64,000 bases of DNA. It comes from a virus. Its lineage: Duplodnaviria; Caudoviricetes. The DNA lies in IMG/VR virus record IMGVR_UViG_3300020577_002562, positions 32,001 through 96,000 of that record. One strand, written 5' to 3'. Numbering within the stretch: the first letter of the stretch is position 1; each line of letters opens with the position of its first letter. This document shows, piece by piece, positions 2,111 through 63,583 of the stretch. The position numbers were made by a program, and so were the translations under genes. The notes beneath the pieces were generated by a model that saw nothing but the letters and a program-made list of their open reading frames with translations, ran no database searches and was not told the DNA's origin.

Positions 2111-3138
2111 TGTCAGAACTACATGGAGTGGCTATAGGGGATCTGCATCTGGACAAGATGCGCAAGCATTTCCCTGACCGGCATCTTGAGCTACAGTACA
2201 GCGCCGTATCGCGTGCATTGACACATGCATATAGGAATGGCGCGAGTCATGCCATCTTTCTGGGCGACATTGGTGAAGGCGGTAAGGACTTCACGAACAA
2301 CTTGGTGCTCAGTGCTGGGGCTCAAGATCTATTGTTGACCATCATACATGACTGGGGACCGAAGATCAATCTGGTATTCTACGCGGGCAATCATGACTTC
2401 ACAGACCTCAGCAGTCAGACGTTGACCACGTTCGCAAGGCTGTCCCGGTTGTCTTACATACCGGCAGAGTTTCACTTGACGCCCGCAGTCATCAGCCACA
2501 AGAAGCTGCGGATAAACATCTTACCGTACCCAGCACAAAAGCCACCGGACTCCAATCTGAGCTTCGCTCACTATGAAGTGGCAGGTGCGGTAACAGACTC
2601 CGGTCGCTTGTGTGAAGAGGCTCGTAAGCATAACTATGGGGGAGTGCCGTTCATTCAAGGTCATCTACACACGCCGCAGAAGATCCGCAACCACCATTAT
2701 CCGGGCACATTGTACCAGACCGCGTTCGGCGAGCGGTTGCCTAAGGGCTTTGCTGAGTTCAAGTGGGACGGCAACAAGCTGAGATACAAGTGGATCGAAC
2801 AAGATCCACCGTTCACGCTGCACAATCTTCGAGTCAACAGCCGCAAGGATCTGAAGACCATCAAAGATGACCCGCTGCACCTGTACAAGCTGTTCGTGAA
2901 CGAAACCGTCAAGCTTAAGGACTCAGATCTTGATCGTCCGAACATCGTCAATCGACTGAACTTTGGTACTGAACAGGAAGCCGATGCATTGGAAGCCGCA
3001 GAGTTCGCACTTGAAGAGCAGACGCTAGACTTGGGGTATGACAAGATCTTGGAAGACCTGCTAGCTAATGAGGGGTTGTCTCCCAAACTGGTGCGCATGT
3101 GTAAAGTAGAGTTGGACAAATTCAAGAGCAAGAGCTAA
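2110..3138 (+). CDS. sbcD: Mre11/SbcD-like metallophosphoesterase nuclease
   Basis: GDLHL, FLGD, GNHD, AH and GHLH motifs; Rad50-like gene nearby. Confidence 0.9.
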   Translation: MSELHGVAIGDLHLDKMRKHFPDRHLELQYSAVSRALTHAYRNGASHAIFLGDIGEGGKDFTNNLVLSAGAQDLLLTIIHDWGPKINLVFYAGNHDFTDLSSQTLTTFARLSRLSYIPAEFHLTPAVISHKKLRINILPYPAQKPPDSNLSFAHYEVAGAVTDSGRLCEEARKHNYGGVPFIQGHLHTPQKIRNHHYPGTLYQTAFGERLPKGFAEFKWDGNKLRYKWIEQDPPFTLHNLRVNSRKDLKTIKDDPLHLYKLFVNETVKLKDSDLDRPNIVNRLNFGTEQEADALEAAEFALEEQTLDLGYDKILEDLLANEGLSPKLVRMCKVELDKFKSKS

Positions 3139-7520: not shown

Positions 7521-8608
7521 TGATCAAGACCAAGCAAATTCCTTCGCTGGAGGACTACAGAATCGGTGAAGCTCCAGTTGATACATTGGTAGTCACCGGA
7601 GAGTGCGATCTTGCAGGTGTAAGTCTAGCTGCTCTGTCGCGCCATGTGAACCGGCGTCTGGTGTTCAAGAAGCGTCCGAAATTGAGAGGCCGATATGATA
7701 ACACGATTGTTGCCCGCTCACTGATGGCTTACGGCTTTCAGGTGTTTGATACCGTGCGTAACGCCTACAAGATCAATTCTATCTGTCAGTTCAACTACAC
7801 GGACCCGAGGTACATCGACTATGTGCTGTACGCTGTAGCTTACGGATCGGACCCTAATCGAGTTCGACAGTTGCTTGCTCAACCTGTAATGCAGTGCACC
7901 CACATGTATGAGTTGATGGGAGGCTCCGCAGAATTGAGCCTGTACGGTATGGCTGACTACCCGCACATCCAGTTCACTTCAGTAGACATCGACGATCGGG
8001 CCAATAGGTACGTTTGGCGTAGAGCACAAGCTGCTGGTCTACAGGTGTACGTTGAAACTGAAGATGTGACGCAATTCGAGCCTTATAGAAATGAGAAGAT
8101 CGTGAACGCCTGCTTCATTGGGAAGCAGTCGATTAACTACTTTGACCCACTGGCCGTAAGAGATCTGCTAGAGCATTTACTCGTTAATTACGATGTGATT
8201 GCACTTGAACTATTGACACCGATTGATGCCTACAAGAACTACCACAGCAAGCACGAATGCGATTGGTTGCCCAGGGGGCAGCAATTGGTAGAGCGATTTT
8301 GCTCTGATCAGCCTGAACGACCTCGAGCCAATCCTGTAACCTCTCGGCTTGCGTTCTCCTTGTTCTTGGAACATATCGACAAAGGACAGTTGCTGAATTG
8401 GCATCATGTTTCGGCCTACGATTGGTGGATGTACAACCTACAGTCCGTGGTTCACATGATGATGCAGATGGGTATAGCCACATCCGACATGTGGTACTAC
8501 ACATATGGGAATCGAGCTGCCGTGCGCGTAGACGAGTACAAACCTGAACATCATCGCGCTATCATGGAAGATGGTGATGTTGTGACCTTGATCGTTCGTA
8601 GAAACTAG
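7517..8608 (+). CDS. class I SAM-dependent methyltransferase-like protein
   Basis: MYELMGGSA (motif I-like), TSVDID (motif II), EDVTQF, QSINYF. Confidence 0.55.
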   Translation: MMIKTKQIPSLEDYRIGEAPVDTLVVTGECDLAGVSLAALSRHVNRRLVFKKRPKLRGRYDNTIVARSLMAYGFQVFDTVRNAYKINSICQFNYTDPRYIDYVLYAVAYGSDPNRVRQLLAQPVMQCTHMYELMGGSAELSLYGMADYPHIQFTSVDIDDRANRYVWRRAQAAGLQVYVETEDVTQFEPYRNEKIVNACFIGKQSINYFDPLAVRDLLEHLLVNYDVIALELLTPIDAYKNYHSKHECDWLPRGQQLVERFCSDQPERPRANPVTSRLAFSLFLEHIDKGQLLNWHHVSAYDWWMYNLQSVVHMMMQMGIATSDMWYYTYGNRAAVRVDEYKPEHHRAIMEDGDVVTLIVRRN

Positions 8609-8643
8609 CAGAAGGGGTTGGCAATTGCCAACCCCTTCTGCTA
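8606..8643. terminator. 38-bp perfect palindrome ending the replication operon
   Basis: TAGCAGAAGGGGTTGGCAA|TTGCCAACCCCTTCTGCTA. Confidence 0.7.
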
Positions 8644-8650
8644 TGACGCA

Positions 8651-8660
8651 CTAATTTGAG
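8651..8660 (+). promoter_or_regulatory. candidate late promoter motif (C/G)TAATTT(G/C)A
   Basis: CTAATTTGAG lies just after the terminator and before a virion gene; the same motif occurs at 11577, 23934, 42170 and 47121. Confidence 0.4.
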
Positions 8661-11636: not shown

Positions 11637-12035
11637 ATGAACGCGGAGAGCGCAGCAATAGCAGTGCATTCTACAGGGGTTCAAGCCATCGGCTTGGCCC
11701 TATTTGGCATTCTCGGCATACCATTGAATGCCATTGTGTGGGGACTGATTGGTGCTTACGGTGGCTCCGTAGTCACTCGACCTATTCGTGACACGGAAGG
11801 TGCGATCTTGTACATGTGCGCCTCTTTGTTGTCTGGTTTGGCAGGCTACACGATTTCTCGTATGTGGTTCAATGGGGAAGCAGTGTTGACCAATCTGTTT
11901 TCCGGCGTGCTGGGATTCTTGTTCAACGCAATTTCTGCCTCGGTGATTGCTGTCGTGCCTACTATGGTGCAGACGGTAGCTAGCGTGGTAACGTCGCGAT
12001 TCAAGACCGAGTCGAAGAACAAGGAGGGGCAATGA
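11637..12035 (+). CDS. holin-like membrane protein
   Basis: 3-4 hydrophobic helices, basic C-terminus, lysis cassette context. Confidence 0.55.
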   Translation: MNAESAAIAVHSTGVQAIGLALFGILGIPLNAIVWGLIGAYGGSVVTRPIRDTEGAILYMCASLLSGLAGYTISRMWFNGEAVLTNLFSGVLGFLFNAISASVIAVVPTMVQTVASVVTSRFKTESKNKEGQ

Positions 12036-12445
12036 TCTCTACACTTCAACTCCTGCAACCTCTGGTGAGCTTGACAACAGTCATCGTATGCCTCTACTTG
12101 ACGGCTATGTATGGCAAGCGTTTGTTCAAGGTCAGCGTACAGCGACAACCATCTGGCTTTGTCATCATGCAGTTTCTTGGTGCTGCGTATCCAGCCCTGC
12201 TGATTCTGGAACTTCAAGCTCACCCGGTTAGATTCATAGACGGTCTTGTGCTTGCGTGGTCCGCATTGTATCTATGGCGCAGCAGAGAGCGGATGGCTCT
12301 GTATGTGAAGGATGCTGAAGCAGGTGTTCCGAAACGAGAGATGGAAGACGTGTCTGAAACTCGAATGATCCTCAAGCCAAAGAGTGAGCCTGCCAAAGTT
12401 GATCAATCTAGCACCGATCAGGAGAAACCAAATGCTGGTACGTGA
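12032..12445 (+). CDS. membrane protein (holin/antiholin-like)
   Basis: About 3 TM segments and a charged tail; ATGA-coupled to the previous gene. Confidence 0.5.
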   Translation: MISTLQLLQPLVSLTTVIVCLYLTAMYGKRLFKVSVQRQPSGFVIMQFLGAAYPALLILELQAHPVRFIDGLVLAWSALYLWRSRERMALYVKDAEAGVPKREMEDVSETRMILKPKSEPAKVDQSSTDQEKPNAGT

Positions 12446-14257: not shown

Positions 14258-15970
14258 ATGAAACGACTCAAGCCCTTCGGACCGGTTGACGGATTCATTC
14301 ACGTTGGCCTGGTATCCATGTTGTTTTACATGGCAGTGTTTGCCAAACAGAAGCCCTTTCTCAGCGCTGAACTGCTGAAGTCATTGAAGCAATGGGTGCC
14401 ATTGGGTCGTGAGTTCGTCAAGAAGTACGGCATTAGCATCAAAGCATACCAGGCGTACACTCAGTTGCTGATGGTGGCTACTGAAGAAGAAACCATCGAT
14501 GACCACTTGTATGAGCTACTAGATTCCTATAGGGCCGCAATGCCCAAGATTCAGCGTGATGTGTCCATCTCTCACGAACAGCTAGGCATGATCAAGGACA
14601 TCATGCTGTGGATGAAGAACGAGAGTTGCAATGCACTGGCGCGAGTGGAGCGTGGACTGTCTACAGTCACAAGTGAATCAGCGTTGATAGCGGGCTTCCA
14701 GAAGGACTTGGAATCCCAAGATCCGTTCTTGGAAGAGTTGATCCCATTGGTGAAGAAGCTTGGGGGTTCTGGTGTTCCAATCAAGTGGGAACTCACCATT
14801 GAGGAGTCCAGGGCAGTAAACAAAACTAAGCCAGCCCTGTACAAGAAGTATCTTGAACTCAAGCGTACTGTAGAGGGCATAGCGAAGCGCGGACTGATGG
14901 ATTACGTTCGCGCCTCTGGCAAGGAGTCGGTTCCGATTAAAGACGCAGTCAAGTATCTCGAAGCTCAAGGGATACAGCACAAGCTTCCAATGGAGTTCAA
15001 AGGCAACGTCGGTGAAGATGGTGCTCTGTATACTGGTGGTGCCAAACAGCTCAGGCTGTCGTCTGCACCTCGATACAAGATCGTGATGAATCCAAAATAT
15101 GATCCAATCAAAGACGATCAGTTCGTAGCCACGGAGATTCGTCCGACGCTAAACGCCAAGGGTAAACCTAACGTTGCACACCTCTACACTGTGCAGTACA
15201 CGCGTCGCTCCATGCGCGAGAAGTACAAGATGGTGAGTGTGCTCATTAAGAATCAGAACAAGTACCGTCGTAAGTGGATTGAGGACATGAAGTCAGATGA
15301 TCCAGATCGTTGGGTGTTCGGTCTGATGGTTGAGTTGTCTTACAGCACATGCGCTCGTATCTCGGAGCCAGGAGCGGAGAATACGAAGGGCCGCACTTTT
15401 GGATTGAGTTCCTGGCTGGTTGGCAACATCAAACGAATGGGGCCTTCTAGAATCATTGAATACACTGGTAAGGACTCTGTACACCACAAGCACAAGATCG
15501 ACCCGAGCACAGCCATTTCTCGCCTAGTAATCAAGCGTTTGGATTCGTTGACCAAAGACCGCCCGCGTAAAGAACTAGTGTTTGAGGTGGATGGCAAGTA
15601 TTACTCACCACAGAAGATTCGTACCTATTTCAAGACGTTGACCGGCATTTCTGATGTGTCGATTCACAAGATCCGAACCATGCGAGGCACTGAGTTGGCG
15701 GAGAAGGAATTGGAAAAGCGGATTGGCATCCTTGATTCTAAACGCTCTCTCACGCAGACAGTTGTTGACAAGTCATTCCAAGAAGCATTGACCGCAGTTG
15801 GCAAGCTCCTGGGTCACGTGAAGGGGGTCGGTGCAGAACAGAAAGCGACGTGGACCACCGCTAGTAAGAGCTACGTGGACGCGGACTTGCAACGTTCCTT
15901 CTATGAGCACTTTGCAGATCGTGGCATACGTCTGAATAAGACGGTCGCCCGCAACGTTGGAACTAAGTGA
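14258..15970 (+). CDS. type IB DNA topoisomerase
   Basis: Catalytic pentad in correct order: R (CARIS), K (YTGKDSVHH), R (KIRT), H (LLGH), Y (SKSYVD); GLSSW corresponds to the GLTTL motif. Confidence 0.85.
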   Translation: MKRLKPFGPVDGFIHVGLVSMLFYMAVFAKQKPFLSAELLKSLKQWVPLGREFVKKYGISIKAYQAYTQLLMVATEEETIDDHLYELLDSYRAAMPKIQRDVSISHEQLGMIKDIMLWMKNESCNALARVERGLSTVTSESALIAGFQKDLESQDPFLEELIPLVKKLGGSGVPIKWELTIEESRAVNKTKPALYKKYLELKRTVEGIAKRGLMDYVRASGKESVPIKDAVKYLEAQGIQHKLPMEFKGNVGEDGALYTGGAKQLRLSSAPRYKIVMNPKYDPIKDDQFVATEIRPTLNAKGKPNVAHLYTVQYTRRSMREKYKMVSVLIKNQNKYRRKWIEDMKSDDPDRWVFGLMVELSYSTCARISEPGAENTKGRTFGLSSWLVGNIKRMGPSRIIEYTGKDSVHHKHKIDPSTAISRLVIKRLDSLTKDRPRKELVFEVDGKYYSPQKIRTYFKTLTGISDVSIHKIRTMRGTELAEKELEKRIGILDSKRSLTQTVVDKSFQEALTAVGKLLGHVKGVGAEQKATWTTASKSYVDADLQRSFYEHFADRGIRLNKTVARNVGTK

Positions 15971-15979
15971 AAGCCCATC

Positions 15980-16327
15980 ATGAAATTTGATCCTCTGCGT
16001 TTTGGTACCTCTCTTGTTCGCAAGATCGGTGTGCGTAGTCTTCGAGAGAAGTCTCTGAAGTTCGGTGTTGGGTTCATTCATATGGAGCGTGGTGAACTAG
16101 CCAATGCGTTTCCAACAGTTCAAGTCTTGAATGGTAAGCTCAAGAGGCTCAATTCAAACCGACTCGACATCGAGACCCCACCACAAACGTTCGATCTTGC
16201 CCGCAATCATGGTGGATTCATTACCACGTATAGAGCTACCATCAATGATGCAGGCGGTGAAACTGCCGTGGATCTTGAAATCCAGATCGATACTGTAGCA
16301 GCTACCCTCCTTGTTTACGAAGTGTGA
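15980..16327 (+). CDS. hypothetical protein
   Basis: ORF in operon. Confidence 0.6.
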   Translation: MKFDPLRFGTSLVRKIGVRSLREKSLKFGVGFIHMERGELANAFPTVQVLNGKLKRLNSNRLDIETPPQTFDLARNHGGFITTYRATINDAGGETAVDLEIQIDTVAATLLVYEV

Positions 16328-16335
16328 TCGCAGCC

Positions 16336-16764
16336 ATGCGCAAGCTCAAGCAAAGCAACGAGTACATCGACCGGCTGATCCTGGAGTTCATGCGTCGCTT
16401 TCCGTCACTGACTACCCGTAGCGGAGCTTATGACAAGTGCAAGCTGGTTAGCCTGGAACTGGCAGCATTCTTGCGCAAGCGTGGCCTCAAGGCTTCGATG
16501 ATCCATCTGCAAACGCCGACAGACGCTTACCCGAACGCTTGCAGCCAATGGCTAGAAAAGCCGGCTGAGGAATGGTCGCACTACGTAGTGAAGGTCGGTA
16601 CTCGATTGATTGATGCCACGGCTCGCCAGTTCGACCCCAAGGCCGATGTTCCGCAAGTGTTACCGATGAGTGTGATGCGTACTAAGTGGAAGGTCATCGA
16701 AGAGGACTCTTTCTTGGATCGTTGGGTCACAGAAGTGATGCCGGTCAAAGAGTTCAACGTATGA
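16336..16764 (+). CDS. papain/transglutaminase-fold protein (Cys-His-Asp)
   Basis: DKC..VS helix Cys, SHYVV, IDATARQF. Confidence 0.6.
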   Translation: MRKLKQSNEYIDRLILEFMRRFPSLTTRSGAYDKCKLVSLELAAFLRKRGLKASMIHLQTPTDAYPNACSQWLEKPAEEWSHYVVKVGTRLIDATARQFDPKADVPQVLPMSVMRTKWKVIEEDSFLDRWVTEVMPVKEFNV

Positions 16765-17327
16765 AGCGCTTGCAAGTAGCTGCTATCGGCGCCGTCAAGA
16801 AGGGTGCGTTTCATAAGTGGCTGGGCAAGTCTGAGGATTCGCCAATCACTGATGCAGACATCAAGAAGGGCCTAGCATCTGATGATGCGCATGTGCGTAA
16901 GATGGCGAACTTCGCCCGCAATGCTAAGAAGTGGGCGCACTCATCGAGCATCGGGCATCTGGATTCAGAGACTGCTGCCTGGCCCAAAGACTTCTTCAGC
17001 TTGTGTGCCAAAGAGATGCCAAAGGAGTTTAAGGAAGCAGTGAGTATCACCATCCGTGGCTACTACAAAGACATCATGGATTTCACCTGCTACATGAGAA
17101 CATCGCAATCGAACCCTTTGATTCGCTTCTATGATTTCGAGCAGGACACGAGCACCAAGCCAGCGACCAAAGAAGGCGTAGACGACTTTGTGGCGGACAT
17201 CCGCAAGATCGCTAAGAAGAATGGGATGGTTGAAATACGCGACATCAAGAACATGATGGGCCACACGTATGCGTTGACTCGCCTTCCGCGTGGTAACGGT
17301 CTGCGGGTGATTGCGCTTCTTCGCTGA
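16761..17327 (+). CDS. hypothetical two-domain protein with MKRLQVAA leader
   Basis: ATG 16761 overlaps the previous stop (ATGA); basic KKGAFH...RKMANFARNAKKW module, then SETAA and a second domain. Confidence 0.65.
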   Translation: MKRLQVAAIGAVKKGAFHKWLGKSEDSPITDADIKKGLASDDAHVRKMANFARNAKKWAHSSSIGHLDSETAAWPKDFFSLCAKEMPKEFKEAVSITIRGYYKDIMDFTCYMRTSQSNPLIRFYDFEQDTSTKPATKEGVDDFVADIRKIAKKNGMVEIRDIKNMMGHTYALTRLPRGNGLRVIALLR

Positions 17328-17356
17328 CCAATCGATACAGACTGTCGGTAAAGTAA

Positions 17357-17794
17357 ATGAAGCAGCTTGTCCAACGTGACCAACGCGCCCGGTCACTTGA
17401 ACGGTACGGAACGACCCACTACTTTGTGCCGTTTCCGATGGAGAACATCGACGATAACTTGAGCCTGCTGTACTTGATGATGAAGCACCGACTGCCAAAG
17501 GCTTCTGTCGTCAAGATTGCGGTGGATAGTCTAGTGGCGATACAGAACTCTGTTAGCTGTGCCGGAGTTCGTAGATACAAGCGAGGTGATCGCAACCCCA
17601 TCCTAGTAGCAAGAATCAATGGGGTCAACTACATCATTGATGGAACACACCGAGCAACTGCTGCGTGGGCTATGCGAGAACCGTTCGTGTATGCTCACTA
17701 CCTTGAGTTCAGAGGGTTGGACTTGAGGCACCATTACGGTGGAATGACAACATCAGAGTGGAACGCTCTGTATGATGAGGCCTTAGTGAAATGA
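17357..17794 (+). CDS. ParB/Sulfiredoxin N-terminal-like domain protein
   Basis: L.AIQ..V, PILV....YIIDGTHRATAA. Confidence 0.75.
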   Translation: MKQLVQRDQRARSLERYGTTHYFVPFPMENIDDNLSLLYLMMKHRLPKASVVKIAVDSLVAIQNSVSCAGVRRYKRGDRNPILVARINGVNYIIDGTHRATAAWAMREPFVYAHYLEFRGLDLRHHYGGMTTSEWNALYDEALVK

Positions 17795-18273
17795 AACAGC
17801 TAGTCACGGCAAAGACCTACAAGCCTTTCACTAGAGCTGGTGGTCTGTATAGCTCCTGCACAGTCAAGGATGAAGCACGTTTGGTGTCGTGGTGTCAGAA
17901 CCTACAACTGCCGGTGGAAGAGGCAGAGAATGGTGAACTGCATGTCACCGTGATCTACAGTCCACAGCATTGTCCTCCCGACGCTACTCCGCTTCCGACC
18001 TCAGGTATGGCAACGGTGATCGGAGTAGATCTGTTTGGACCAGAGGGTGATACACTGGTCTTGCTGCTGCAAAGTGCATTTCTGGCCGAGTTGCACGACC
18101 GCTGGCGGGATCTTGGTTGCGTGCCAACCTTTCCTATGTACAGGCCACACATCACATTACAAAAGAACGTGCGCCAGTGTGATCTGGAGGGCTTCAATTC
18201 TCGAATCCAGTGCAGTCCACTGCTGACGGTAGAGTTATCTCCTGAAGTACTAGAGGACATCAAAGATGGGTAA
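17791..18273 (+). CDS. acb1: Acb1 (T4 gp57B)-like 2H phosphoesterase, putative anti-CBASS nuclease
   Basis: GLY..., HVTVIYS and YRPHITL (two HxT motifs), TLVLLLQS.FL..LH......G...F, matching the T4 57B/Acb1 pattern as recalled. Confidence 0.8.
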   Translation: MKQLVTAKTYKPFTRAGGLYSSCTVKDEARLVSWCQNLQLPVEEAENGELHVTVIYSPQHCPPDATPLPTSGMATVIGVDLFGPEGDTLVLLLQSAFLAELHDRWRDLGCVPTFPMYRPHITLQKNVRQCDLEGFNSRIQCSPLLTVELSPEVLEDIKDG

Positions 18274-18499
18274 TCCTTACGCTTACCGACCTCGTCCACA
18301 ATCCAAGTTCAACAGATACAGTGTCACTGTCCAGTACGCGGGCGAGATGAAAGAGTATGAGACAATGGCACAGACTGAAGCAGGTGCCAAAGCAAACGTA
18401 GCGTACCGTGTCGCCAAGGACTGGAATCTAGTGGTCAGTCTGGTACACGCTAAGATACGTTCAGGTGACATCGTGTTCACCATCAAACAAATCGGCTGA
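18266..18499 (+). CDS. hypothetical protein
   Basis: Short ORF overlapping the previous gene. Confidence 0.55.
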   Translation: MGNPYAYRPRPQSKFNRYSVTVQYAGEMKEYETMAQTEAGAKANVAYRVAKDWNLVVSLVHAKIRSGDIVFTIKQIG

Positions 18500-18567
18500 A
18501 TCAGCCCTACTCAAGCTCCAAACCTGATCGTTAGATCTACGGTGACTGCAATACAAGGAAGACGATC

Positions 18568-18978
18568 ATGGAAGCCGGAGCCAACTCTATCTTTCAGTGG
18601 GTGCTCTCTATGAACGCTGCAACGTGGACACTGCTGGTCCTGACGGTTGCTGGTCTAGCAGTTGCCTGGCGTGCTCAGACACGCGATGACTTCGACTTTG
18701 CTCGCATGCTGCTGGACAGCAACGGCAAACCCAGCGCCACGCGAATGGGAACGTTTGTGTGCTTGGCGGTCAGCACTTACGTCTTGATCTTGGCCTTCAT
18801 CAACGCCAAGGACAACGTCACCACCAATGTCCTCTATATGTTCGGCATCTACTTGGCAGTGTGGAGTGGTGCAAAAGTCATCGAGCGTGCCATTGACGCA
18901 TGGGTCTCGATCAAGGGAGGCAATCCACTTCCACCAGCGCCACAAGTACAAACGCCTCCCACTGCTGAAGACAAGTGA
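18568..18978 (+). CDS. membrane protein (possible holin)
   Basis: 3 TM segments; D.NGK.S.TR motif before TM2. Confidence 0.55.
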   Translation: MEAGANSIFQWVLSMNAATWTLLVLTVAGLAVAWRAQTRDDFDFARMLLDSNGKPSATRMGTFVCLAVSTYVLILAFINAKDNVTTNVLYMFGIYLAVWSGAKVIERAIDAWVSIKGGNPLPPAPQVQTPPTAEDK

Positions 18979-19469
18979 TGAAACGACTTGTGCAAAGACT
19001 AACTGCCACGAACGTTACTGATCTGACGATCAGGCGTTGGTACGATAAGTCTACGAGAAACTGGATCGTCACTCTACATGACTCTGATGACAATCAAGTA
19101 GGTGATAGCATTGTTGTCTATAGTCGCGGTGAAGCCTCGAACATCAAGAAAGACAATCCAGCGTTCAATGTACCCTCGGAGCCGGAAGACCGCTACGGCT
19201 TTTCCGTGCCTCAAGAGTTTAGGCCGGCGATGAGGGCGCTCGTCCGAACTGTAGACACAAATCCAGGTGATGTCCAAGTTTGGGACGTAAAGACCAGGTC
19301 GCTTAAGTTTCGCCTCTACTACAGCAGCGCCACGCTCTTCATCACACGCGATTCAGCAGGGGCAAGAGGAGTCTGCGGTGTGTTGCCAATTCTGCGTTGG
19401 ATGAAAGCGAAACTCGTGCGCCTGCGGTTGGGTACTCAAGAGCTAACTCTACGCAATCTTAAAGCTTGA
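18978..19469 (+). CDS. hypothetical protein with MKRLVQRLTA leader
   Basis: Coupled ORF. Confidence 0.6.
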   Translation: MKRLVQRLTATNVTDLTIRRWYDKSTRNWIVTLHDSDDNQVGDSIVVYSRGEASNIKKDNPAFNVPSEPEDRYGFSVPQEFRPAMRALVRTVDTNPGDVQVWDVKTRSLKFRLYYSSATLFITRDSAGARGVCGVLPILRWMKAKLVRLRLGTQELTLRNLKA

Positions 19470-19471
19470 CC

Positions 19472-20200
19472 ATGAAACGGCTTGCCAAACCTGTCACGTA
19501 TGCTCAGTACCGCCACGCTATCTTGGCTGCCACTGGCCAGGAAGTTGCGTGGTCTTTCTCTTTGCCTCCGCAACTGGTCAAGTTCGTAGCGACGATCAAA
19601 CAGGTGCTGAAGCAGATTGCTGACCAGACGGGCGCGGCAATCGCGGACATAGGTAGAGCACTGGCACACAAGCAGATGTTCGCAGTGCTGAAAGCAATCG
19701 GATTCAACCTGAAGAAGCTGTTGGATGGGTTTGGCAAGCTGATGGCATTGATGCGTCAAGGTCTGACTGACGTGTTCAGAGCACTTGAAGACAAAGGAGT
19801 GCTGAAGCACTTGGCAAGTGGTGCTCATCACGTAGATGAGTTCCTTGATCATCACCCAGTGTTGCGCAAACTGATCGGATCAGCATTGGCTGCGTTCTTG
19901 TTCTGGGTGTGGTTGAACATGGCTTTCGTTGGTGACCCGGCGTATGACTTTGACCTTAGCTCGGTAGTTGCCGCATTCTCTGGTCGGTACACCATCTACC
20001 AATTCTTTGCCAGCCCTGATGCCTTGACCACGTTCACGTTCTTGGCGGCGGGCTTCTTGGGCTTTGGAGTACAGTGGCTTGGAGCTACCATACCGAACCT
20101 CATTGTAGCGATGGTGGCTACAGGCTTCAAGATGTGGAAAGACTCCGCGCACAAGAAGCAACTGCAACCAGTGTTGAAGCTTACTAGGCTAACACCATGA
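19472..20200 (+). CDS. hypothetical protein with hydrophobic C-terminal half and MKRL leader
   Basis: Coupled ORF; amphipathic and hydrophobic helices. Confidence 0.65.
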   Translation: MKRLAKPVTYAQYRHAILAATGQEVAWSFSLPPQLVKFVATIKQVLKQIADQTGAAIADIGRALAHKQMFAVLKAIGFNLKKLLDGFGKLMALMRQGLTDVFRALEDKGVLKHLASGAHHVDEFLDHHPVLRKLIGSALAAFLFWVWLNMAFVGDPAYDFDLSSVVAAFSGRYTIYQFFASPDALTTFTFLAAGFLGFGVQWLGATIPNLIVAMVATGFKMWKDSAHKKQLQPVLKLTRLTP

Positions 20201-22119
20201 AACAACTGATGACTCTGGCAGCGAACATCTCCGATCTGGAACGTTTGGTACGTTTGCTGAAGAAGGCCAAAGACTCGTACTACAATGATGGTACGTTCTA
20301 CAGGGCAGAGCCGCGTGAGTTTCCTGCTGATCTGCGCCCAGACGGCCCACAGCTAATCACGGACAAGCGTTACGATAAGCTGGAAGACGCACTGCGAGAA
20401 CGCGACCCGACGAACAAGCTGTTGCGCAGCGTCGGTACTGCGTCAAGACAAAAGGTCAAGCTCCCGTTCTACATGGGCAGCTTGACCAAAGTACGTTCAG
20501 AGTCGGAAATCGTTGACTGGTCCGAAGAGTACCCAGGACCATGGGTCATCAGCGACAAGATCGATGGCATCAGCATTCTCTTGTCATACAAGAGCGACGC
20601 GGTGAAACTCTACACGAGAGGTGAAGCTACCTCTGGTATGGACATCACGCATCTGGCACCGCATCTCAAGTTGCCGAAGCTGAAGGGCACGTTTGCCTTG
20701 CGTGGCGAACTGGTGATGAGCAAGTCACGGTTCGACAGTAAGTGGGCGCAAGCATTCAAGAACCCTCGCAACATGGCGGCCGGCTTGGCGAATCGCAAAG
20801 ACGTACATGATGCAGTCAAAGACCTGACGGTCATGATCTACGAAGTGCTTGTGCCTCGCGTCAAACCATCGCGTGCTCTGAAGTGGGCCAAGTCCAAGGG
20901 ATTCACTGTTGTTCCGCACAAAGTCGTCACTGACATCGACGGAGACTATCTGCACCAGACGTTCATGCGTCGGCGTGCCGCAGGCAAGTACGAAGTTGAC
21001 GGTTTGGTGTTGGTTCAAGACCAGGTTCATCCGTTGAACAAGCAGCCGTATCCAGATTGGGGGCGTGCGTTCAAGAGCGAGTTGGCGGATGACGTTGCCA
21101 ATGCCACAGTCAAGAGCGTGGAGTGGAGACCTAGTCGTCACGGCTACCTGGTGCCGCTGATTCACGTTGAGCCGGTTAAGCTCAAGGGCGTGACTGTCAG
21201 CAAAGCCAGCGGTAAGAATGCAGGCTTCATCCGTGACAACAAGATCGGCACTGGTGCTGTAGTGAGGCTGCGCCGCAGCGGTGACGTGATCCCGGACGTG
21301 AAAGATGGCGACGTAATCAAGCCAGCACGCAAAGCGGCACTGCCACCCGCCACGTATCGCTGGCACTGGGACAGCGGTCAAGTCAACATCGTGCTGACTT
21401 CCAAGACGGAACAGAAGAACGCACCTGAAATTCAAGTGCAGGTGCTTGAGCACTTCTTCAAGACGTTGGGGGTTGAGCGGATCAAGGCAGCTACACTGAT
21501 GTTGTTCGTAGAACAGGGTTATCAGAATGTGATCCAGGTGCTGCGTTTGAGTCGTCGTCAGTTCACCAACATCGAAGGAGGGTCGGCCAAGGTGTTGGAT
21601 GCTGTGTACGATCAGCTGCAGGAGCGTCTGGCGGAAGTCGATCTACCGACGCTGATGGATGCATCGAACGTGTTTGGACGGGGCTTTGGTACACGTCGAT
21701 GCTCGGCCATCGTCAATGCATTGCCCAATATTCTGAAGCTCAGTGGTCGGGAAGACTTGCCGCAGCGCATCGACGAGATTGAGGGCTTCGACTTGAAGAC
21801 TGCTAGCGGCTTTGCCGCCAAGCTCCCTCTGTTCGTGAAGTGGCTTGCAAAGTCTGGTATCACACCGCGTGGGCCAAAGCGTGTACGTCCGGTTGGCAGC
21901 AAGCTGGACGGCCACCGTGTTCTGTTCACAGGTTTCCGTGATAGCGACTTGGAGAAGCGCATCGTTGCCAACGGGGGTCAGATTGCTAGTGGTGCTAGTA
22001 AGGCCACTATTCTGCTGGCGAAAGACCCTGGAGGCAACTCTGCCAAGTTGAATGCCGCACGGCAGCGTGGGATCAAGATCATGACGGCAGACCAGTTCAT
22101 TCGCAAGTACGGTATCTGA
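20197..22119 (+). CDS. ligA: NAD+-dependent DNA ligase
   Basis: YYN..D..YD domain Ia, MGSL, KIDG adenylation motif, RGE, NPRN.AAG, DGLV, AFK, SGDVIP, HhH, C-terminal BRCT (FTGFRD). Confidence 0.95.
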   Translation: MKQLMTLAANISDLERLVRLLKKAKDSYYNDGTFYRAEPREFPADLRPDGPQLITDKRYDKLEDALRERDPTNKLLRSVGTASRQKVKLPFYMGSLTKVRSESEIVDWSEEYPGPWVISDKIDGISILLSYKSDAVKLYTRGEATSGMDITHLAPHLKLPKLKGTFALRGELVMSKSRFDSKWAQAFKNPRNMAAGLANRKDVHDAVKDLTVMIYEVLVPRVKPSRALKWAKSKGFTVVPHKVVTDIDGDYLHQTFMRRRAAGKYEVDGLVLVQDQVHPLNKQPYPDWGRAFKSELADDVANATVKSVEWRPSRHGYLVPLIHVEPVKLKGVTVSKASGKNAGFIRDNKIGTGAVVRLRRSGDVIPDVKDGDVIKPARKAALPPATYRWHWDSGQVNIVLTSKTEQKNAPEIQVQVLEHFFKTLGVERIKAATLMLFVEQGYQNVIQVLRLSRRQFTNIEGGSAKVLDAVYDQLQERLAEVDLPTLMDASNVFGRGFGTRRCSAIVNALPNILKLSGREDLPQRIDEIEGFDLKTASGFAAKLPLFVKWLAKSGITPRGPKRVRPVGSKLDGHRVLFTGFRDSDLEKRIVANGGQIASGASKATILLAKDPGGNSAKLNAARQRGIKIMTADQFIRKYGI

Positions 22120-22121
22120 CC

Positions 22122-22204
22122 ATGAAACCGTCTACTAGCCGCATACAGCTTGGAAAATGTCCAAGAACGAAGCCCAAGAGTTCACGGAAGCCAACCTGAT
22201 ATAG
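22122..22204 (+). pseudogene. degenerate remnant of a leader-bearing ORF
   Basis: ATGAAA-C-CGTCTACTAGCCGCA reads MK-RLLAA if one base is removed; all frames close within about 30 codons. Confidence 0.3.
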
Positions 22205-22220
22205 ATAGGTAGAATCCATT

Positions 22221-23039
22221 ATGTCATATGTAGTAACGCGGAAGTTCACGTACTACTCGGCGAAGAACTCGCGGGAGCTGAATTTAACTCCAGGTGATGT
22301 GTTCAACTGCTCATTCAATGAGGCAACACGCTTCTATACCATTGAAGTACAAGGGGACATAAAGTATAGATTGACCGGCGTCGCATGGAAAACATTGTTA
22401 GAGCACTCTCAACCCGTCAAAACGGTTAAAGAGGGTGGTCTAGACTTAAAGTATCTGACTAGGTGGTGGGATTCGCTATCAAGCGCCGAACAACGGAGAG
22501 AACTTTCATTGATCCAGATGGTTCCAGAGTGGTTTACTACCGGAGCTTTTGGAAAGAAGATGCGATTATCATCCAAACCTTCGCTAGCGGGTATGTATGA
22601 TAGCCAAGCTGTATATGAAGGTGCTCCTAGAGTTTGGCTGAGACTGCGTAGACTGATGAAGAAACTACCACCAGTTCGCACAGTGTACAGAGTACAGGCC
22701 ATCTCAAGAACTGCTTTAGTGAGGACGTCAACTACAGTTACTCCGCTAAAGGATATGACCAGTTTCTCACTGTCACCCGACATAAAAGACACACTGTTGG
22801 CTATACTACCAAAAATGCGTGGCGGTCCCAAAGTTTTATTGACCGTTCGCGTTACTGATGAAAGCCAAGTCCTGTTTGACTACCGATGGGTACGAAGCGT
22901 ACTGAACTCGACTGTAGATCATCCTTGGCTGAATCAGATACGTAAAAGTTGGCGTGTGGTGTATCGCTCTTTTCTTCTTGAAGAAGAAATAGTCCTGTAC
23001 ACTCCAAAACCATTCCGAGCAAAGCTTATCCCTCTTTGA
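22221..23039 (+). CDS. putative ADP-ribosyltransferase (R-S-E class) with small N-terminal beta domain
   Basis: TVYR, TSFS and EEEIVL motifs in canonical order; visibly more AT-rich than its neighbours. Confidence 0.6.
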   Translation: MSYVVTRKFTYYSAKNSRELNLTPGDVFNCSFNEATRFYTIEVQGDIKYRLTGVAWKTLLEHSQPVKTVKEGGLDLKYLTRWWDSLSSAEQRRELSLIQMVPEWFTTGAFGKKMRLSSKPSLAGMYDSQAVYEGAPRVWLRLRRLMKKLPPVRTVYRVQAISRTALVRTSTTVTPLKDMTSFSLSPDIKDTLLAILPKMRGGPKVLLTVRVTDESQVLFDYRWVRSVLNSTVDHPWLNQIRKSWRVVYRSFLLEEEIVLYTPKPFRAKLIPL

Positions 23040-23477
23040 ATGATTGAAGACCCCATGACCGACATGACCGAAGCAATTGGCGTTGTGCATTACAAGAAGG
23101 GCTACAAGTACCAGTTGGTACAGGCTTTCAAGATCCAGACTACGGTGAAGCCTCCATTGGATGTGCATACCGACTGGATCGACTTGACCAAAGACGGCAT
23201 GCTGACGCTGGCTCCAGGTTATGCATGGAATGGACCGAATTGGCCTGCCATTGACACTGAGACTTTCCGGCGCGGGTCTCTGGTGCACGATGCTCTATAC
23301 CAACTGATCTCTGACATGAAGATCAGTACGTCCATGAGAGCGGAGGCTGATCACATGCTGAGAAGGGTCTGTATAGACTCTGGTATGTGGCCGCCGCGTG
23401 CTTGGTGGGTATGGACTGGAGTGCGAATTTTCGGCCGTAAGTACGCAACTGCCATCAATCCAACACTAGTGGCGTGA
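23040..23477 (+). CDS. DUF1353-like protein
   Basis: PGYAWNG....., SLVHDALYQ, R.EAD..L motifs. Confidence 0.7.
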   Translation: MIEDPMTDMTEAIGVVHYKKGYKYQLVQAFKIQTTVKPPLDVHTDWIDLTKDGMLTLAPGYAWNGPNWPAIDTETFRRGSLVHDALYQLISDMKISTSMRAEADHMLRRVCIDSGMWPPRAWWVWTGVRIFGRKYATAINPTLVA

Positions 23478-23479
23478 TC

Positions 23480-23947
23480 ATGCGCAAACTCCTTCAATTG
23501 GGAACTGCCACTGCATACGAGCCAGATAGTGAGCCTACTGGCGGCATCACGCAAAAACGAGTAGGTCAACCGGAGTGGTTGAGCAAGCACATCTACGTAG
23601 TCGATGAGATATGGTGCATGCCTGGTTGTCCTGACACGGCGATGCGCGTGTGCTACAACAAGTCCGACCAGTACGTAGGCGATGAAGACACAGGTCGCTA
23701 TCTGGCTCAACGAGGCATCGCCCCTGAACCGGCTGATCCGCAACACAGTGTCTGTTCCATTGGCTACTGCGAAAAGGACGGCAAGTGGTATGGATGGTCG
23801 CACCGTGCCATGTTCGGTTTCAAAGTCGGTGACCCACCATCTAGGCCCGGTGACTGTATCAGGCACGGACGAATTGTTGACGACACCTACGCAAAGCAAT
23901 GTGCTCGCCGATTCGCCCGATCAGTGAGTACAGTAATTTCACTCTGA
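23480..23947 (+). CDS. conserved phage hypothetical protein with MRKLLQLGTATA leader
   Basis: SIGY....KWYGWSHRA.FGF..GD motif. Confidence 0.65.
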   Translation: MRKLLQLGTATAYEPDSEPTGGITQKRVGQPEWLSKHIYVVDEIWCMPGCPDTAMRVCYNKSDQYVGDEDTGRYLAQRGIAPEPADPQHSVCSIGYCEKDGKWYGWSHRAMFGFKVGDPPSRPGDCIRHGRIVDDTYAKQCARRFARSVSTVISL

Positions 23948-24598: not shown

Positions 24599-24635
24599 AG
24601 AAGGGGCGGTGGAGAATTTCTCCACCGCCCCTTCT
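24599..24635. terminator. 37-bp palindrome (1-nt centre), bidirectional terminator between convergent units
   Basis: AGAAGGGGCGGTGGAGAA-T-TTCTCCACCGCCCCTTCT. Confidence 0.75.
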
Positions 24636-42168: not shown

Positions 42169-42180
42169 CTAATTTCACTG
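42169..42180 (+). promoter_or_regulatory. candidate late promoter CTAATTTCACTG for the head operon
   Basis: Same motif as at 8652, 11577 and 23934; about 80 bp before the head genes. Confidence 0.45.
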
Positions 42181-42252: not shown

Positions 42253-43656
42253 ATGCGCAAGCAACTTGCACTAGAGCGGGCCTCGGTTGTCAGCGCCGCT
42301 GCAAAAGACGGTGACTTGATCGTAATTGCGTCGGCGGAGCCGAAGTACGATCCGAAGGTCGCAACTGCATCGTATCACTGCACCCAGTGCAAGACGGTGT
42401 TTGCGTCCTTGGCGAACTTCCAACCGTTCTGCATCACATGCGGAATGGATGCTGTCGACCCAGTAAGCGAGCAACAAGAGGTTACGCTTCCACCCACCGA
42501 CGAAACCATGTGCGTGAGTACGTGTGATTCGTGCGATGCCAACACGATGATCCCGGTCCACCACGCCAAAGCGTTGTCTGGTTTGATGCACTGCGCAGCT
42601 TGCGGTGCGCAGATCACCTACGCGATGGACGGCGAAGAACCCACGTTGCTGGACGCAGCGGACGAAGACGATCTGCATCAGATCGAAGCAACGGCTGAGA
42701 AGGCTGAGAAGGCTGACACTTCGTTGCCGACTGATCCGCCTGAAGTCATCGACCAGGCGAACGACGATGACGTGATTGAGATGGTCGAAGCCTCCGACGA
42801 TTCGTTGGACGACGCGGGGCAACAATCCCCATTGGATGATGCGATGTCAGAAGATGACGTTGCTACCAACTCTGATCCTGCGGCCGGTGCCACTGATCTG
42901 CAAGTGGCTGCGATTGCCGGTGCCAAGGACGGCGACATTCAACTGTGCAAGCTTGGTGACGCCACGATGGCTTTTGTGGGGGAGACGCATGTCGCCACTC
43001 TCCACAAGTCGGACATGAGTCCTGAAGTTGCTGCGCTCGATCTGGCATCGCTGCAAGATGCGGTGATCCACAGCACTGAACGTGAAGGACTGCGTGCTAC
43101 GCTTGCGGCCCTTGGCTTTCAGCTTGCGAAAGTGAAGTTCTCTGTCAAGAAGACTGTCAAGGCGGCGCTGGAAACTCAGCTCAAGTCTGAGCGTTCGGCA
43201 ATCGAACAAGCCTCGGCGAAGATGCAAGAGCGTTTCGAGCAATCGCTGAAGCTGGCCGCGATGGCAATCGCCCGCAACGCAGCGCCAAAGACCTACGTGA
43301 ATCCGATCCGCGATTCACTGGTCGAAACGTTGGCGTCAGCGGGTGTGCAATCGCCTAAGCATGTGGTTGACACAGCGCTGGCGACTTCGCTTGATAGCTA
43401 CAACCGAAACCTGATTCAGTACGCAACTGAGTTGTTCTCCAAGAGCGACGAGGTTCGCAACGAACTGGCAGCGACCATCGGGAACGTAGGCATCTACCAA
43501 GAAACCTCTTCGGAACAAGACGGCACAGTTCTGCCGTTCAGACCAGCAAGCTCTGGTGAAAAACCAGGGAAAACCTCAGCGACTGCGGCAGTGAACACTG
43601 TACGTGCGTCAGCGGTAGCAAGTGTTCGTGGCACATTCGGGCGTGCCGCCCTGTAA
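42253..43656 (+). CDS. putative prohead scaffold/core protein with N-terminal Zn ribbons
   Basis: Four CxxC pairs, acidic linker, coiled-coil C-half; two genes upstream of the capsid gene. Confidence 0.6.
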   Translation: MRKQLALERASVVSAAAKDGDLIVIASAEPKYDPKVATASYHCTQCKTVFASLANFQPFCITCGMDAVDPVSEQQEVTLPPTDETMCVSTCDSCDANTMIPVHHAKALSGLMHCAACGAQITYAMDGEEPTLLDAADEDDLHQIEATAEKAEKADTSLPTDPPEVIDQANDDDVIEMVEASDDSLDDAGQQSPLDDAMSEDDVATNSDPAAGATDLQVAAIAGAKDGDIQLCKLGDATMAFVGETHVATLHKSDMSPEVAALDLASLQDAVIHSTEREGLRATLAALGFQLAKVKFSVKKTVKAALETQLKSERSAIEQASAKMQERFEQSLKLAAMAIARNAAPKTYVNPIRDSLVETLASAGVQSPKHVVDTALATSLDSYNRNLIQYATELFSKSDEVRNELAATIGNVGIYQETSSEQDGTVLPFRPASSGEKPGKTSATAAVNTVRASAVASVRGTFGRAAL

Positions 43657-44382: not shown

Positions 44383-45456
44383 ATGAAGACGATTTCTTTC
44401 CGCAACCCTGTAGTCGCTACTGAACTGCGCTCGAACGGCGGCCGTGGCTCCCGTTTCGTCGGAGCGAATGGCGAACTAAACGCTTCGTCGAAGAAGGAAC
44501 TGCTTCAGCAAATCACCGCATTTGCGCAAGCCGTTTCGGAACACGGCGCTGTGACTGAAGAAACCGCTGCCGAGCGTGCCGAACTGGCGTCCCGCCATCG
44601 TGAAGCGCTGATGGCTGCGTTCCACGACAACGGTGCTCACCGTGAACTGGGCGAAGTGATGGCCGACGAGCTGTATCAAGCAGCGAACCGTTCGGGCTTC
44701 ATGCGCCGTCTGCTGGCGAAGCAAGATCTGAAGCAAGGTCAGTTCCCTCAAGTGCGCATGCGCATGAAGGACGTAACGGCTGTGGTCGCCAGCTCGCCTG
44801 TGACGGTGTTCGCGCAACTCATCCGTGACAACCTGTACACTCCGCCAGAGTTCTACATTACGGCCCGTCCGTTCGTGGAACAGCGCGAAATCGAGCAGTC
44901 GCTCGGTGACGTTCTGGAAGAGAAGTACCTGGAAGGTCTGGAAGGCGGCATGGTCGCTGAAGACCGTGTGTGGCGCAACATGGCCCTGCAGACAGTGAAC
45001 GTGGCGAACCCACTGACGCTGTTCAGCGGTACCATGAACGTCGCCGGTCTGAACACCCTGCGCAACCAGGTCTCTGGTTGGGGTCTGAGTGCTCGGACTT
45101 GGCTGCTCGCCAACGATCTGTGGACAGACGTTGCCTCGGAAACGACATTCCAAAACGCCCTGGACCCCGTCAGCCAGCATGAACTGCTGATGACTGGTCT
45201 GATGGCGCGCCTGTACGGCATGGAGATCGTGTCCGATGCGTTCCGTCATCCGCAGCACAAGGTGCTGGATCAGGGTGAAATGTTCGTGGTGGCCGACCCG
45301 GTCACCCACGGCATGTACACTGATCGCGGCGGTATCGTGTCGAGCCCAATCGACATCACCACAGAACGTGTGCCGGGCCGTGGATGGGTAATGACGGAAA
45401 CCATGTCGATGGTGATCGCCAATGCCCGTTCCGTCGCACGCGGTTCGCGTTCGTGA
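44383..45456 (+). CDS. major capsid protein (HK97-fold, putative)
   Basis: 357 aa, strong codon bias, GAGG RBS, AEDR..., G...LYG..IVSD, GW...E...M.I.N C-terminal pattern; followed by a UUCG hairpin. Confidence 0.8.
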   Translation: MKTISFRNPVVATELRSNGGRGSRFVGANGELNASSKKELLQQITAFAQAVSEHGAVTEETAAERAELASRHREALMAAFHDNGAHRELGEVMADELYQAANRSGFMRRLLAKQDLKQGQFPQVRMRMKDVTAVVASSPVTVFAQLIRDNLYTPPEFYITARPFVEQREIEQSLGDVLEEKYLEGLEGGMVAEDRVWRNMALQTVNVANPLTLFSGTMNVAGLNTLRNQVSGWGLSARTWLLANDLWTDVASETTFQNALDPVSQHELLMTGLMARLYGMEIVSDAFRHPQHKVLDQGEMFVVADPVTHGMYTDRGGIVSSPIDITTERVPGRGWVMTETMSMVIANARSVARGSRS

Positions 45457-63220: not shown

Positions 63221-63583
63221 CTAGACTACTCTGTAGCCAATCACTATGCCCTGGTAGTTGGTAGACCTTGACGCTCCAGCATTGATGGTAAACCTCTGGC
63301 TACCCTTTACGAACAGAACAGTGCCTTTGGCTTTGCTCCGCTCTTTCAAGTAGCCCATACGCAAGAACGAGTTGACCACTGTGTCAGACGGAATGAACAT
63401 CTGCCTAGAACGTTCACTACCAGTTGGCTTCCAAAGTTGAAGTGAGAACGTACTGTCGTCGCGGGCATTGATCACTACAGTACGTCCACCATCAGGGGCT
63501 TCAGTGTCCATCACCACTGTTGCTCCCAACTTCTTCAGCGTGCGGATCAGTACGTTGCAGTCATCTTGCTTTAGTTGTCGCAT
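63221..63583 (-). CDS. hypothetical protein
   Basis: ORF; starts MRQL. Confidence 0.55.
   Translation of the reverse strand: MRQLKQDDCNVLIRTLKKLGATVVMDTEAPDGGRTVVINARDDSTFSLQLWKPTGSERSRQMFIPSDTVVNSFLRMGYLKERSKAKGTVLFVKGSQRFTINAGASRSTNYQGIVIGYRVV

Follow-up and report, generated by a model that had tools for sequence, protein, structure and literature searches.

Organization of the Locus

Here we describe a short N-terminal tag, M-[KR]-[RQK]-L, which heads a set of otherwise unrelated proteins encoded by an uncultured phage. The stretch of DNA analyzed (the window, 64,000 nucleotides) covers positions 32001-96000 of one virus contig of 187,209 bp, IMG/VR record IMGVR_UViG_3300020577_002562, which IMG/VR rates as ~75% complete. 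Coordinates below are those of the window unless stated otherwise, and the whole contig was covered by 259 gene calls, made using a codon-usage model and a ribosome-binding-site rule. The tag is concentrated in a block at 14258-23947, where nine of the 14 genes carry it. As for the phage, its major capsid protein (44383-45456, + strand, PHROG 2522) is 43-51% identical to the homologues in phiRSL1, Motura, GR7B, vB_PpuM, and PhiXhv, which infect Ralstonia, Achromobacter, Vibrio, Pseudomonas putida, and Xanthomonas, respectively. Because of this likeness, the phage is assigned, by capsid protein sequence, to the phiRSL1-like large myophages. When the block was compared by megablast with phage records, no close DNA relative was found.

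The nine tagged genes of the block, all on the + strand, encode a diverse set of proteins. The first (14258-15970, MKRL) specifies a 570-aa type IB topoisomerase (TopIB), which matches Pfam Topoisom_I with 53.8 bits; a scan of IMG/VR with TopIB as query gave no match. The second (16336-16764, MRKL) encodes a 142-aa possible papain-like amidase. It has no Pfam or PHROG match of its own, the assignment coming from a weak Peptidase_C92 match of the orthologue in a relative, L043 (JGI 3300045395), which is ~74% identical at the DNA level. The third (16761-17327, MKRL) encodes 188 aa, in which a 45-residue module is joined to the tag. The fourth (17357-17794, MKQL) encodes a 145-aa, weakly ParB-like nuclease (Pfam ParBc_2, E = 0.012, under the cut-off), and the fifth (17791-18273, MKQL) a 2H phosphoesterase of the anti-CBASS Acb1 family (Pfam Acb1, 63.7 bits). 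Next come a 163-aa protein with no assigned family (18978-19469, MKRL) and a 242-aa protein without family match, the C-terminal half of which is hydrophobic (19472-20200, MKRL). The eighth gene (20197-22119, MKQL) encodes a 640-aa NAD-dependent DNA ligase with Pfam adenylation, OB, and BRCT domains, for which a metagenome scan returned just one match, at 23% identity. The ninth (23480-23947, MRKL) encodes a member of the Tad6 family of type I Thoeris inhibitors (Pfam Tad6, 105 bits). None of the untagged genes of the block matches a family. Directly after the ligase gene, at 22122-22199 (+ strand), the earlier note on this DNA had seen a broken copy of the tag. MKRLLAA can indeed be read there if one base is skipped, which would make it a possible relic of a tagged gene, but as it stands the sequence is a 25-codon open reading frame (ORF).

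The 45-residue module of the third gene (residues 13-57, encoded at 16797-16931) is an observation in its own right. It is 73-84% identical to parts of metagenome proteins P0156-P0161, where it occupies C-terminal ends and, once, a position near the N-terminus. These proteins are otherwise unrelated, and the module belongs to no Pfam family. By these alignments, it is a very conserved mobile small domain.

The block belongs to a transcription unit that is opened by a hairpin of perfectly palindromic sequence (8608-8640), after which comes the promoter-like sequence CTAATTTGA at 8651 (the two together at 8608-8659, + strand), and closed by a bidirectional terminator with a 17-bp stem (24599-24635). 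The unit runs from a fibre-like gene through the endolysin gene and the whole block to that terminator, with no convincing terminator between 8651 and 24599. The opening hairpin ends the recombination and replication genes, and the two hairpins have the same arm ends, AGAAGGGG ... CCCCTTCT. The upstream context of CTAATTTGA is the same as that of the CTAATTTCA motifs found before the scaffold-like gene (at 42169), the portal gene, the neck operon, and a fibre-like gene. Across the contig, each of the 12 tagged genes belongs to a same-strand run preceded by the motif CTAATTT[CG]A, compared with 118 of the 259 genes overall (p = 6e-5). Since the motif also stands before the scaffold-like, portal, and neck operons, the tagged genes may be expressed late, although the UvsX cluster is preceded by it too. 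The block had been described as lying on the late strand with the lysis genes, apart from the replication genes. The late-like unit shared with lysis genes bears this out; the separation is less clear-cut, since the block is codirectional with the UvsX, Mre11-like, and clamp-loader genes, although the hairpin at 8608-8640 stands between them.

A Four-Residue Tag Shared by Unrelated Proteins

The clustering of the tag is far from what would be expected by chance. While nine of the 14 genes in the block carry it, where ~0.07 genes would be expected, only three of the 245 elsewhere on the contig do (Fisher p = 3e-11). The three others are a gene downstream of a fibre-like gene (63221-63583, - strand), encoding a 120-aa protein that starts MRQL, and two genes of the neck operon, outside the window. 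After internal Met residues the motif turns up in 0.6% of cases, and after the 577 Met positions in nongene ORFs it never does. The nine starts that had been reported are all ATG codons, with the order of tags MKRL, MRKL, MKRL, MKQL, MKQL, MKRL, MKRL, MKQL, and MRKL. For four of the nine genes there is an alternative in-frame GTG or TTG two to four codons upstream (at 16324, 18975, 19466, and 23474), which would speak for an artefact of start-codon choice. In these genes, ATG is nevertheless the likelier start, lying 0-8 nt off the preceding stop. Considering the p value, the absence of the motif from nongene ORFs, the ATG codons adjoining preceding stops, and the retention of the tag in orthologues (see below), we regard chance or a start-choice artefact as highly improbable.

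Past the tag, the proteins have nothing detectable in common. They show no mutual BLASTP similarity beyond their first 7-13 residues, in line with the earlier description of them as otherwise nonhomologous. When all N-terminal 24-mers of the contig were compared in an unbiased way by blastp-short, the tag family came out as the largest in the genome, with 22 pairs vs. 12 and five in two internal controls. This comparison replaced two others: a de novo expectation-maximization motif search on N-termini, which over-fitted and gave likelihoods near those of shuffled controls, and an unanchored BLOSUM comparison of N-terminal windows, which was noisy and did not raise N-termini above internal windows. 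Of the 12 tagged proteins, ten have a strongly basic composition, and inspection of the nine proteins of the block found no hydrophobic core after the tag of the kind seen in Sec or Tat signal peptides.

We also asked where the tag sits relative to the folds that follow it. In Acb1, residues 18-158 align to positions 2-138 of the profile, which leaves 17 residues ahead of the domain. In Tad6, residues 35-130 align to positions 5-104 (~30 residues ahead), and in the ligase, residues 12-639 align to positions 7-654 of PHROG 3869 (~5-10 residues ahead). By these profile alignments, the tag is N-terminal to the folds of Acb1, Tad6, and the ligase, placing it outside the conserved fold, as the earlier reading would have it. 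This is less certain for TopIB, the N-terminus of which continues into conserved sequence.

The Tag Is Constrained as Protein and Borders Exchangeable Cassettes

Several features of the tagged starts indicate that the constraint acts on the protein rather than on the DNA or RNA. The Leu in position 4 is encoded by CTC, CTT, CTA, CTG, or TTG, the MRKL variant corresponds to a swap of the two basic codons, third codon positions vary, and the 50 nt upstream of the nine starts are unrelated. In L043, the gene that is orthologous in position to the 16761 gene also starts MKRL but uses AAA CGT CTT where the phage has AAG CGC TTG, so that four of the nine bases differ and all four changes are synonymous. 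The tag is retained in metagenome orthologues of two other proteins: eight of the first nine residues are the same in an Acb1 that is 64% identical, and a TopIB that is 52% identical starts MKKL, which fits the motif. Because of the varied Leu codons, the unconserved upstream DNA, the synonymous-only change, and the orthologues that retain the tag, we conclude that the constraint on the tag, as read from these comparisons, acts on the protein and represents purifying selection. Two alternatives were discarded on this basis. A repeated DNA or RNA element at the starts (promoter, operator, or repeat) is contradicted by the unconserved upstream sequence, the variable third positions, and the four synonymous changes. 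An RNA-level explanation is not needed either, as codon bias inside the tag merely matches the general bias at gene starts.

Comparison with the relative shows gene bodies coming and going at the tag's edge. In the relative, the orthologue of the 188-aa gene ends and is followed by the motif GGTAAAGTA and then by the start of Acb1. In the phage, the corresponding junction (17338-17374, + strand), defined by DNA alignment with the relative's Acb1 start, consists of the motif GGTAAAGTAA and the first six codons of the ParB-like gene. In other words, the stretch that matches the relative's Acb1 start, with 17 of the 18 bases of the six codons the same, heads the ParB-like gene instead. The Acb1 gene of the phage comes after it with its own copy of the tag, and the relative has no ParB-like gene there. 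As judged from this alignment, gain or loss of the ParB-like cassette took place precisely after the six-codon tag. The second case is the third tagged gene, where in L043 MKRL is followed by a body of ~110 residues that is lacking in the phage, in which the tag nearly abuts the 45-residue module. By these two cases, the tag bounds exchangeable cassettes. This agrees with the earlier view of the tag as portable among unrelated proteins, which the cassette swaps at its edge and its conservation at the protein level both uphold, and it resembles the internal-protein loci of T-even phages, in which gene bodies are likewise exchanged at the leader edge. The same locus in L043 shows a Cys-rich, homing-endonuclease-like ORF (L043:890-1138) after the tagged gene, at the place where the phage gene enters its C-terminal domain; this hints that insertion of an endonuclease may have split the relative's tagged gene.

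The cassette borders could also have been produced if the tag were a start module, i.e., if the first codons traveled with recombination joints and were kept because they allow workable initiation or reinitiation, their residues being idle in the finished protein. Several observations fit. Shine-Dalgarno matches are weaker before the tagged genes than before the rest (Mann-Whitney p = 0.005), and the tagged genes start 0-12 nt off the preceding stop, with the exception of 17357 (~29 nt). AAA is favored at codon 2, the cassettes have their borders at the tag, with the ParB-like and Acb1 starts having 17 of 18 bases the same as the relative's Acb1 start, and orthologues in more distant relatives lack the tag. 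However, idle residues would not be expected to accumulate four synonymous and no replacement changes in orthologous MKRL starts, or to show five Leu codons without a single Leu replacement among 12 genes. MRKL swaps the codons while the chemistry is retained, the codon bias of the tag is no stronger than that of gene starts in general, and untagged genes of the same operons initiate without it. We therefore consider a start module unlikely, and we favor the view that M-[KR]-[RQK]-L is a short tag acting at the protein level on a changing set of late-like, mostly basic accessory proteins.

Leader Families in Related Phages

The blind comparison of N-termini was repeated on five relatives, and two of them proved to have leader families of their own. 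In Motura, one leader of ~12 residues heads a 14-gene family (51 N-terminal pairs vs. 12 and 10 in controls). Twelve of these 14 genes lie in one operon (132975-145187 of that genome), together with genes for a connector, a giant helicase, an Acb1-like protein, the head protease, the scaffold-like protein, and the capsid protein. Eleven of the leader proteins are unrelated past residue 18, only three being paralogous. Bearers of the Motura leader include gp158-164, gp170, and gp174-177. In phiRSL1, at least six small unrelated proteins, among them those of ORF120, 123, 124, 126, 127, and 133, share a 15-residue leader (66626-69735 and 77367 of that genome). Their genes adjoin the portal gene, lie between the protease and scaffold-like genes, and stand beside the giant helicase gene. 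The leaders place the starts of phiRSL1 ORF126 and ORF133 at 69428 and 77367, which differ from the annotation, and the match suggests that these are the true starts. In the phage itself, two small genes of the neck operon carry a phiRSL1-like leader.

The leader phenomenon thus recurs in the clade, with leaders that, on sequence comparison, are lineage-specific and whose homology is unsupported. The idea that all leaders are one homologous signal was dropped after a Motura leader profile, scanned across six genomes, missed those of the other lineages, and the same scan led us to drop a Motura TopIB as a bearer of the Motura leader. Starts with MIK in GR7B and SKa-4, noticed by eye, were too few to be retained as a family, and regular-expression patterns for leaders across lineages gave a mixed, subjective outcome. 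In GR7B and SKa-4, the ligase gene and an Acb1-like gene lie within the neck and head operon. In the literature searched, we found no description of the tag of the phage or of the leader families of Motura and phiRSL1.

Head Loading as a Possible Use of the Tag

What would such a tag be for? Head genes on the contig include those for a portal (PHROG 16240), a head maturation protease (PHROG 18299), and a scaffold-like head protein of 467 aa (42253-43656, + strand, with a late-like motif at 42169). As had been pointed out, the latter starts in a similar way (MRKQL), while tail and baseplate genes start MA, MS, or MT. Its alignment with the GR7B and SKa-4 proteins reveals a 22-residue N-terminal extension that these lack, an acidic middle, a conserved C-terminus, and Cys pairs. 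There are two Cys-x-x-Cys pairs near the N-terminus, in a zinc-ribbon-like arrangement, and the acidic middle is long and of low complexity; the "ATPase" label given to this family in PHROGs looks like a misnomer.

The closest parallel is with phage T4, whose internal proteins are diverse, counter host defences, and share just a capsid-targeting sequence (CTS) that leads them into the scaffolding core (PMC3012670). They are also described as basic (PMC3012670), as are 10 of the 12 tagged proteins here. The CTS of IPI, IPII, IPIII, and Alt resembles our tag in being a short N-terminal peptide that is the sole likeness among diverse proteins, several of them with counter-defence roles. The two systems are also alike in their variable loci, the swapping of cargo behind the leader, a late or late-like setting, and the presence of a prohead protease and a scaffold. 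Clear differences exist, however. The CTS is ~10 residues long and ended by a cleavage motif, whereas the tag has four residues, a different sequence, and no such motif. The cargo here would include large enzymes (the 640-aa ligase and the 570-aa TopIB) and proteins of the Acb1 and Tad6 families. In addition, the protease of the phage shows no detectable relation to T4 gp21.

Other systems offer partial parallels. The leaders of Motura and phiRSL1 come from the same clade (capsid protein 46-48% identical), and they too are short N-terminal peptides, with a basic residue followed by Leu, on mostly unrelated proteins. Unlike the tag, they are 12-15 residues long, Ala-rich, and located inside the head/neck operon, and the profile does not support common descent. 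Head-carried enzymes that are delivered with the DNA are exemplified by DarB and its partners in phage P1 and by gp202 of phage PaBG. The phage has a homologue of the latter (PaBG_00202), a 1549-aa SNF2-type helicase encoded outside the window (genome coordinates 137567-142216, - strand), in the neck operon among tagged small genes but itself without the tag. We know of no short N-terminal tag shared by Dar proteins. In PaBG, which represents a sister group, purified virions contain the 221-kDa helicase gp202 as a band, and several virion proteins are proteolytically processed (PMC7412058). By analogy, the 1549-aa helicase of the phage is likely to be head-packaged, in a DarB-like manner. Short terminal peptides also bring unrelated enzymes into an HK97-fold shell in encapsulins. 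Unlike the tag, encapsulin cargo-loading peptides are usually C-terminal and have another consensus, and no DNA or injection is involved.

On these grounds, we favor a T4-like use of the tag for capsid targeting, since it fits most of the facts, resting on context. Via the scaffold-like core or the inner surface of the shell, the tag would draw proteins into the head as it assembles, and new genes would be accommodated behind the tag. The tagged proteins would be packaged together with the DNA, and the next cell would receive them ahead of phage gene expression. Head incorporation and injection are thus inferred by analogy, and, although this is the best-fitting reading, we would put its chances at somewhat below even. 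The broader proposition, that phages of the phiRSL1/Motura type load fast-changing sets of proteins into the capsid by means of lineage-specific N-terminal tags, with Acb1, Tad6, TopIB, and the ligase entering here with the genome before expression, is less probable still.

A number of results weigh against head loading. The earlier note had predicted that the prohead protease removes the leader at an Ala or other small-residue site 6-12 residues in. This could not be upheld, as residues 5-14 of the tagged proteins are not distinctive in composition, leaving the four residues alone in common, and no shared or enriched cleavage site lies behind the tag. In the capsid protein, alignment of 81 homologues reveals a conserved hydrophobic-x-acidic-hydrophobic-basic site at residues 12-16, the acidic residue being present in ~60% of them, which makes it a candidate maturation site. 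The tagged proteins show no enrichment of this kind of site, or of any other common one, behind the tag; the first acidic residue of the tagged proteins falls anywhere from position 7 to 27, and that of Acb1 is inside the Pfam-matched fold. A Pfam search of the contig found no match to T4 gp21-type (S77, PF03420) or HK97-type (S78, PF04586) proteases, because of which the T4 cleavage rule is not transferable, and a search of PDB sequences with the head maturation protease found no relative. In TopIB, as described above, the N-terminus runs into conserved sequence. Furthermore, the blind comparison detected no leader family in GR7B, SKa-4, or PhiXhv-15, GR7B and SKa-4 have ligase and Acb1 orthologues without the tag, and the Motura profile misses the tag and most phiRSL1 leaders. 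Finally, the contig comes from an uncultured phage and is rated as ~75% complete.

The same observations leave room for a tag that is read by other machinery acting on N-termini, without packaging. Candidate readers include a protease or unfoldase adaptor that sets protein lifetime (through ClpX N-terminal motifs, or an N-degron created by a cut before Leu), a modifying enzyme, or a factor that localizes proteins to sites of replication or assembly. A protein-level constraint on just four N-terminal residues has a length more typical of a site for an enzyme or adaptor than of a docking helix, no cleavage site was found after the tag, and the tagged ligase and TopIB do cytoplasmic DNA work. Against this, we came across neither a candidate reader nor a modifying enzyme that accompanies the tag (the block's untagged genes match no family), and the location of the Motura and phiRSL1 leader families among head genes would be left unexplained. 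We judge such a reader to be improbable, on a par with the start module.

If head loading by the tag is correct, the genome would arrive in the cell accompanied by DNA-repair enzymes and by enzymes that degrade immune signals. Inhibitors of cyclic-nucleotide immunity of the Acb1 and Tad6 families would be delivered ready-made, and the timing of CBASS and Thoeris defence vs. counter-defence would have to be rethought. The principle of T4 internal proteins would then hold in large phages of an unrelated lineage as well, with cargo the size of enzymes, and a four-residue tag would be available for packaging foreign proteins. Whatever its use, the tag is a portable N-terminal signal that is under selection and at whose border cassettes are exchanged. 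Motura has been cultured, and its 14-gene leader family makes the question directly testable.

Other Features of the Window

Two further observations concern the surroundings of the tagged genes. A second recurrent upstream motif, [TG]GTAAAGTA[GA], occurs genome-wide on both strands (e.g., at 3101 and 17347). It lies 30-45 nt before the genes for DNA polymerase, the clamp loader, and many small proteins, and abuts the ATG at 17347 and in two other genes. It probably serves as a promoter element of the early or middle class. Last, 397 nt at 12035-12432, between a membrane-protein gene and the endolysin gene, contain no called gene, and a small lysis gene may have been missed there by the caller.

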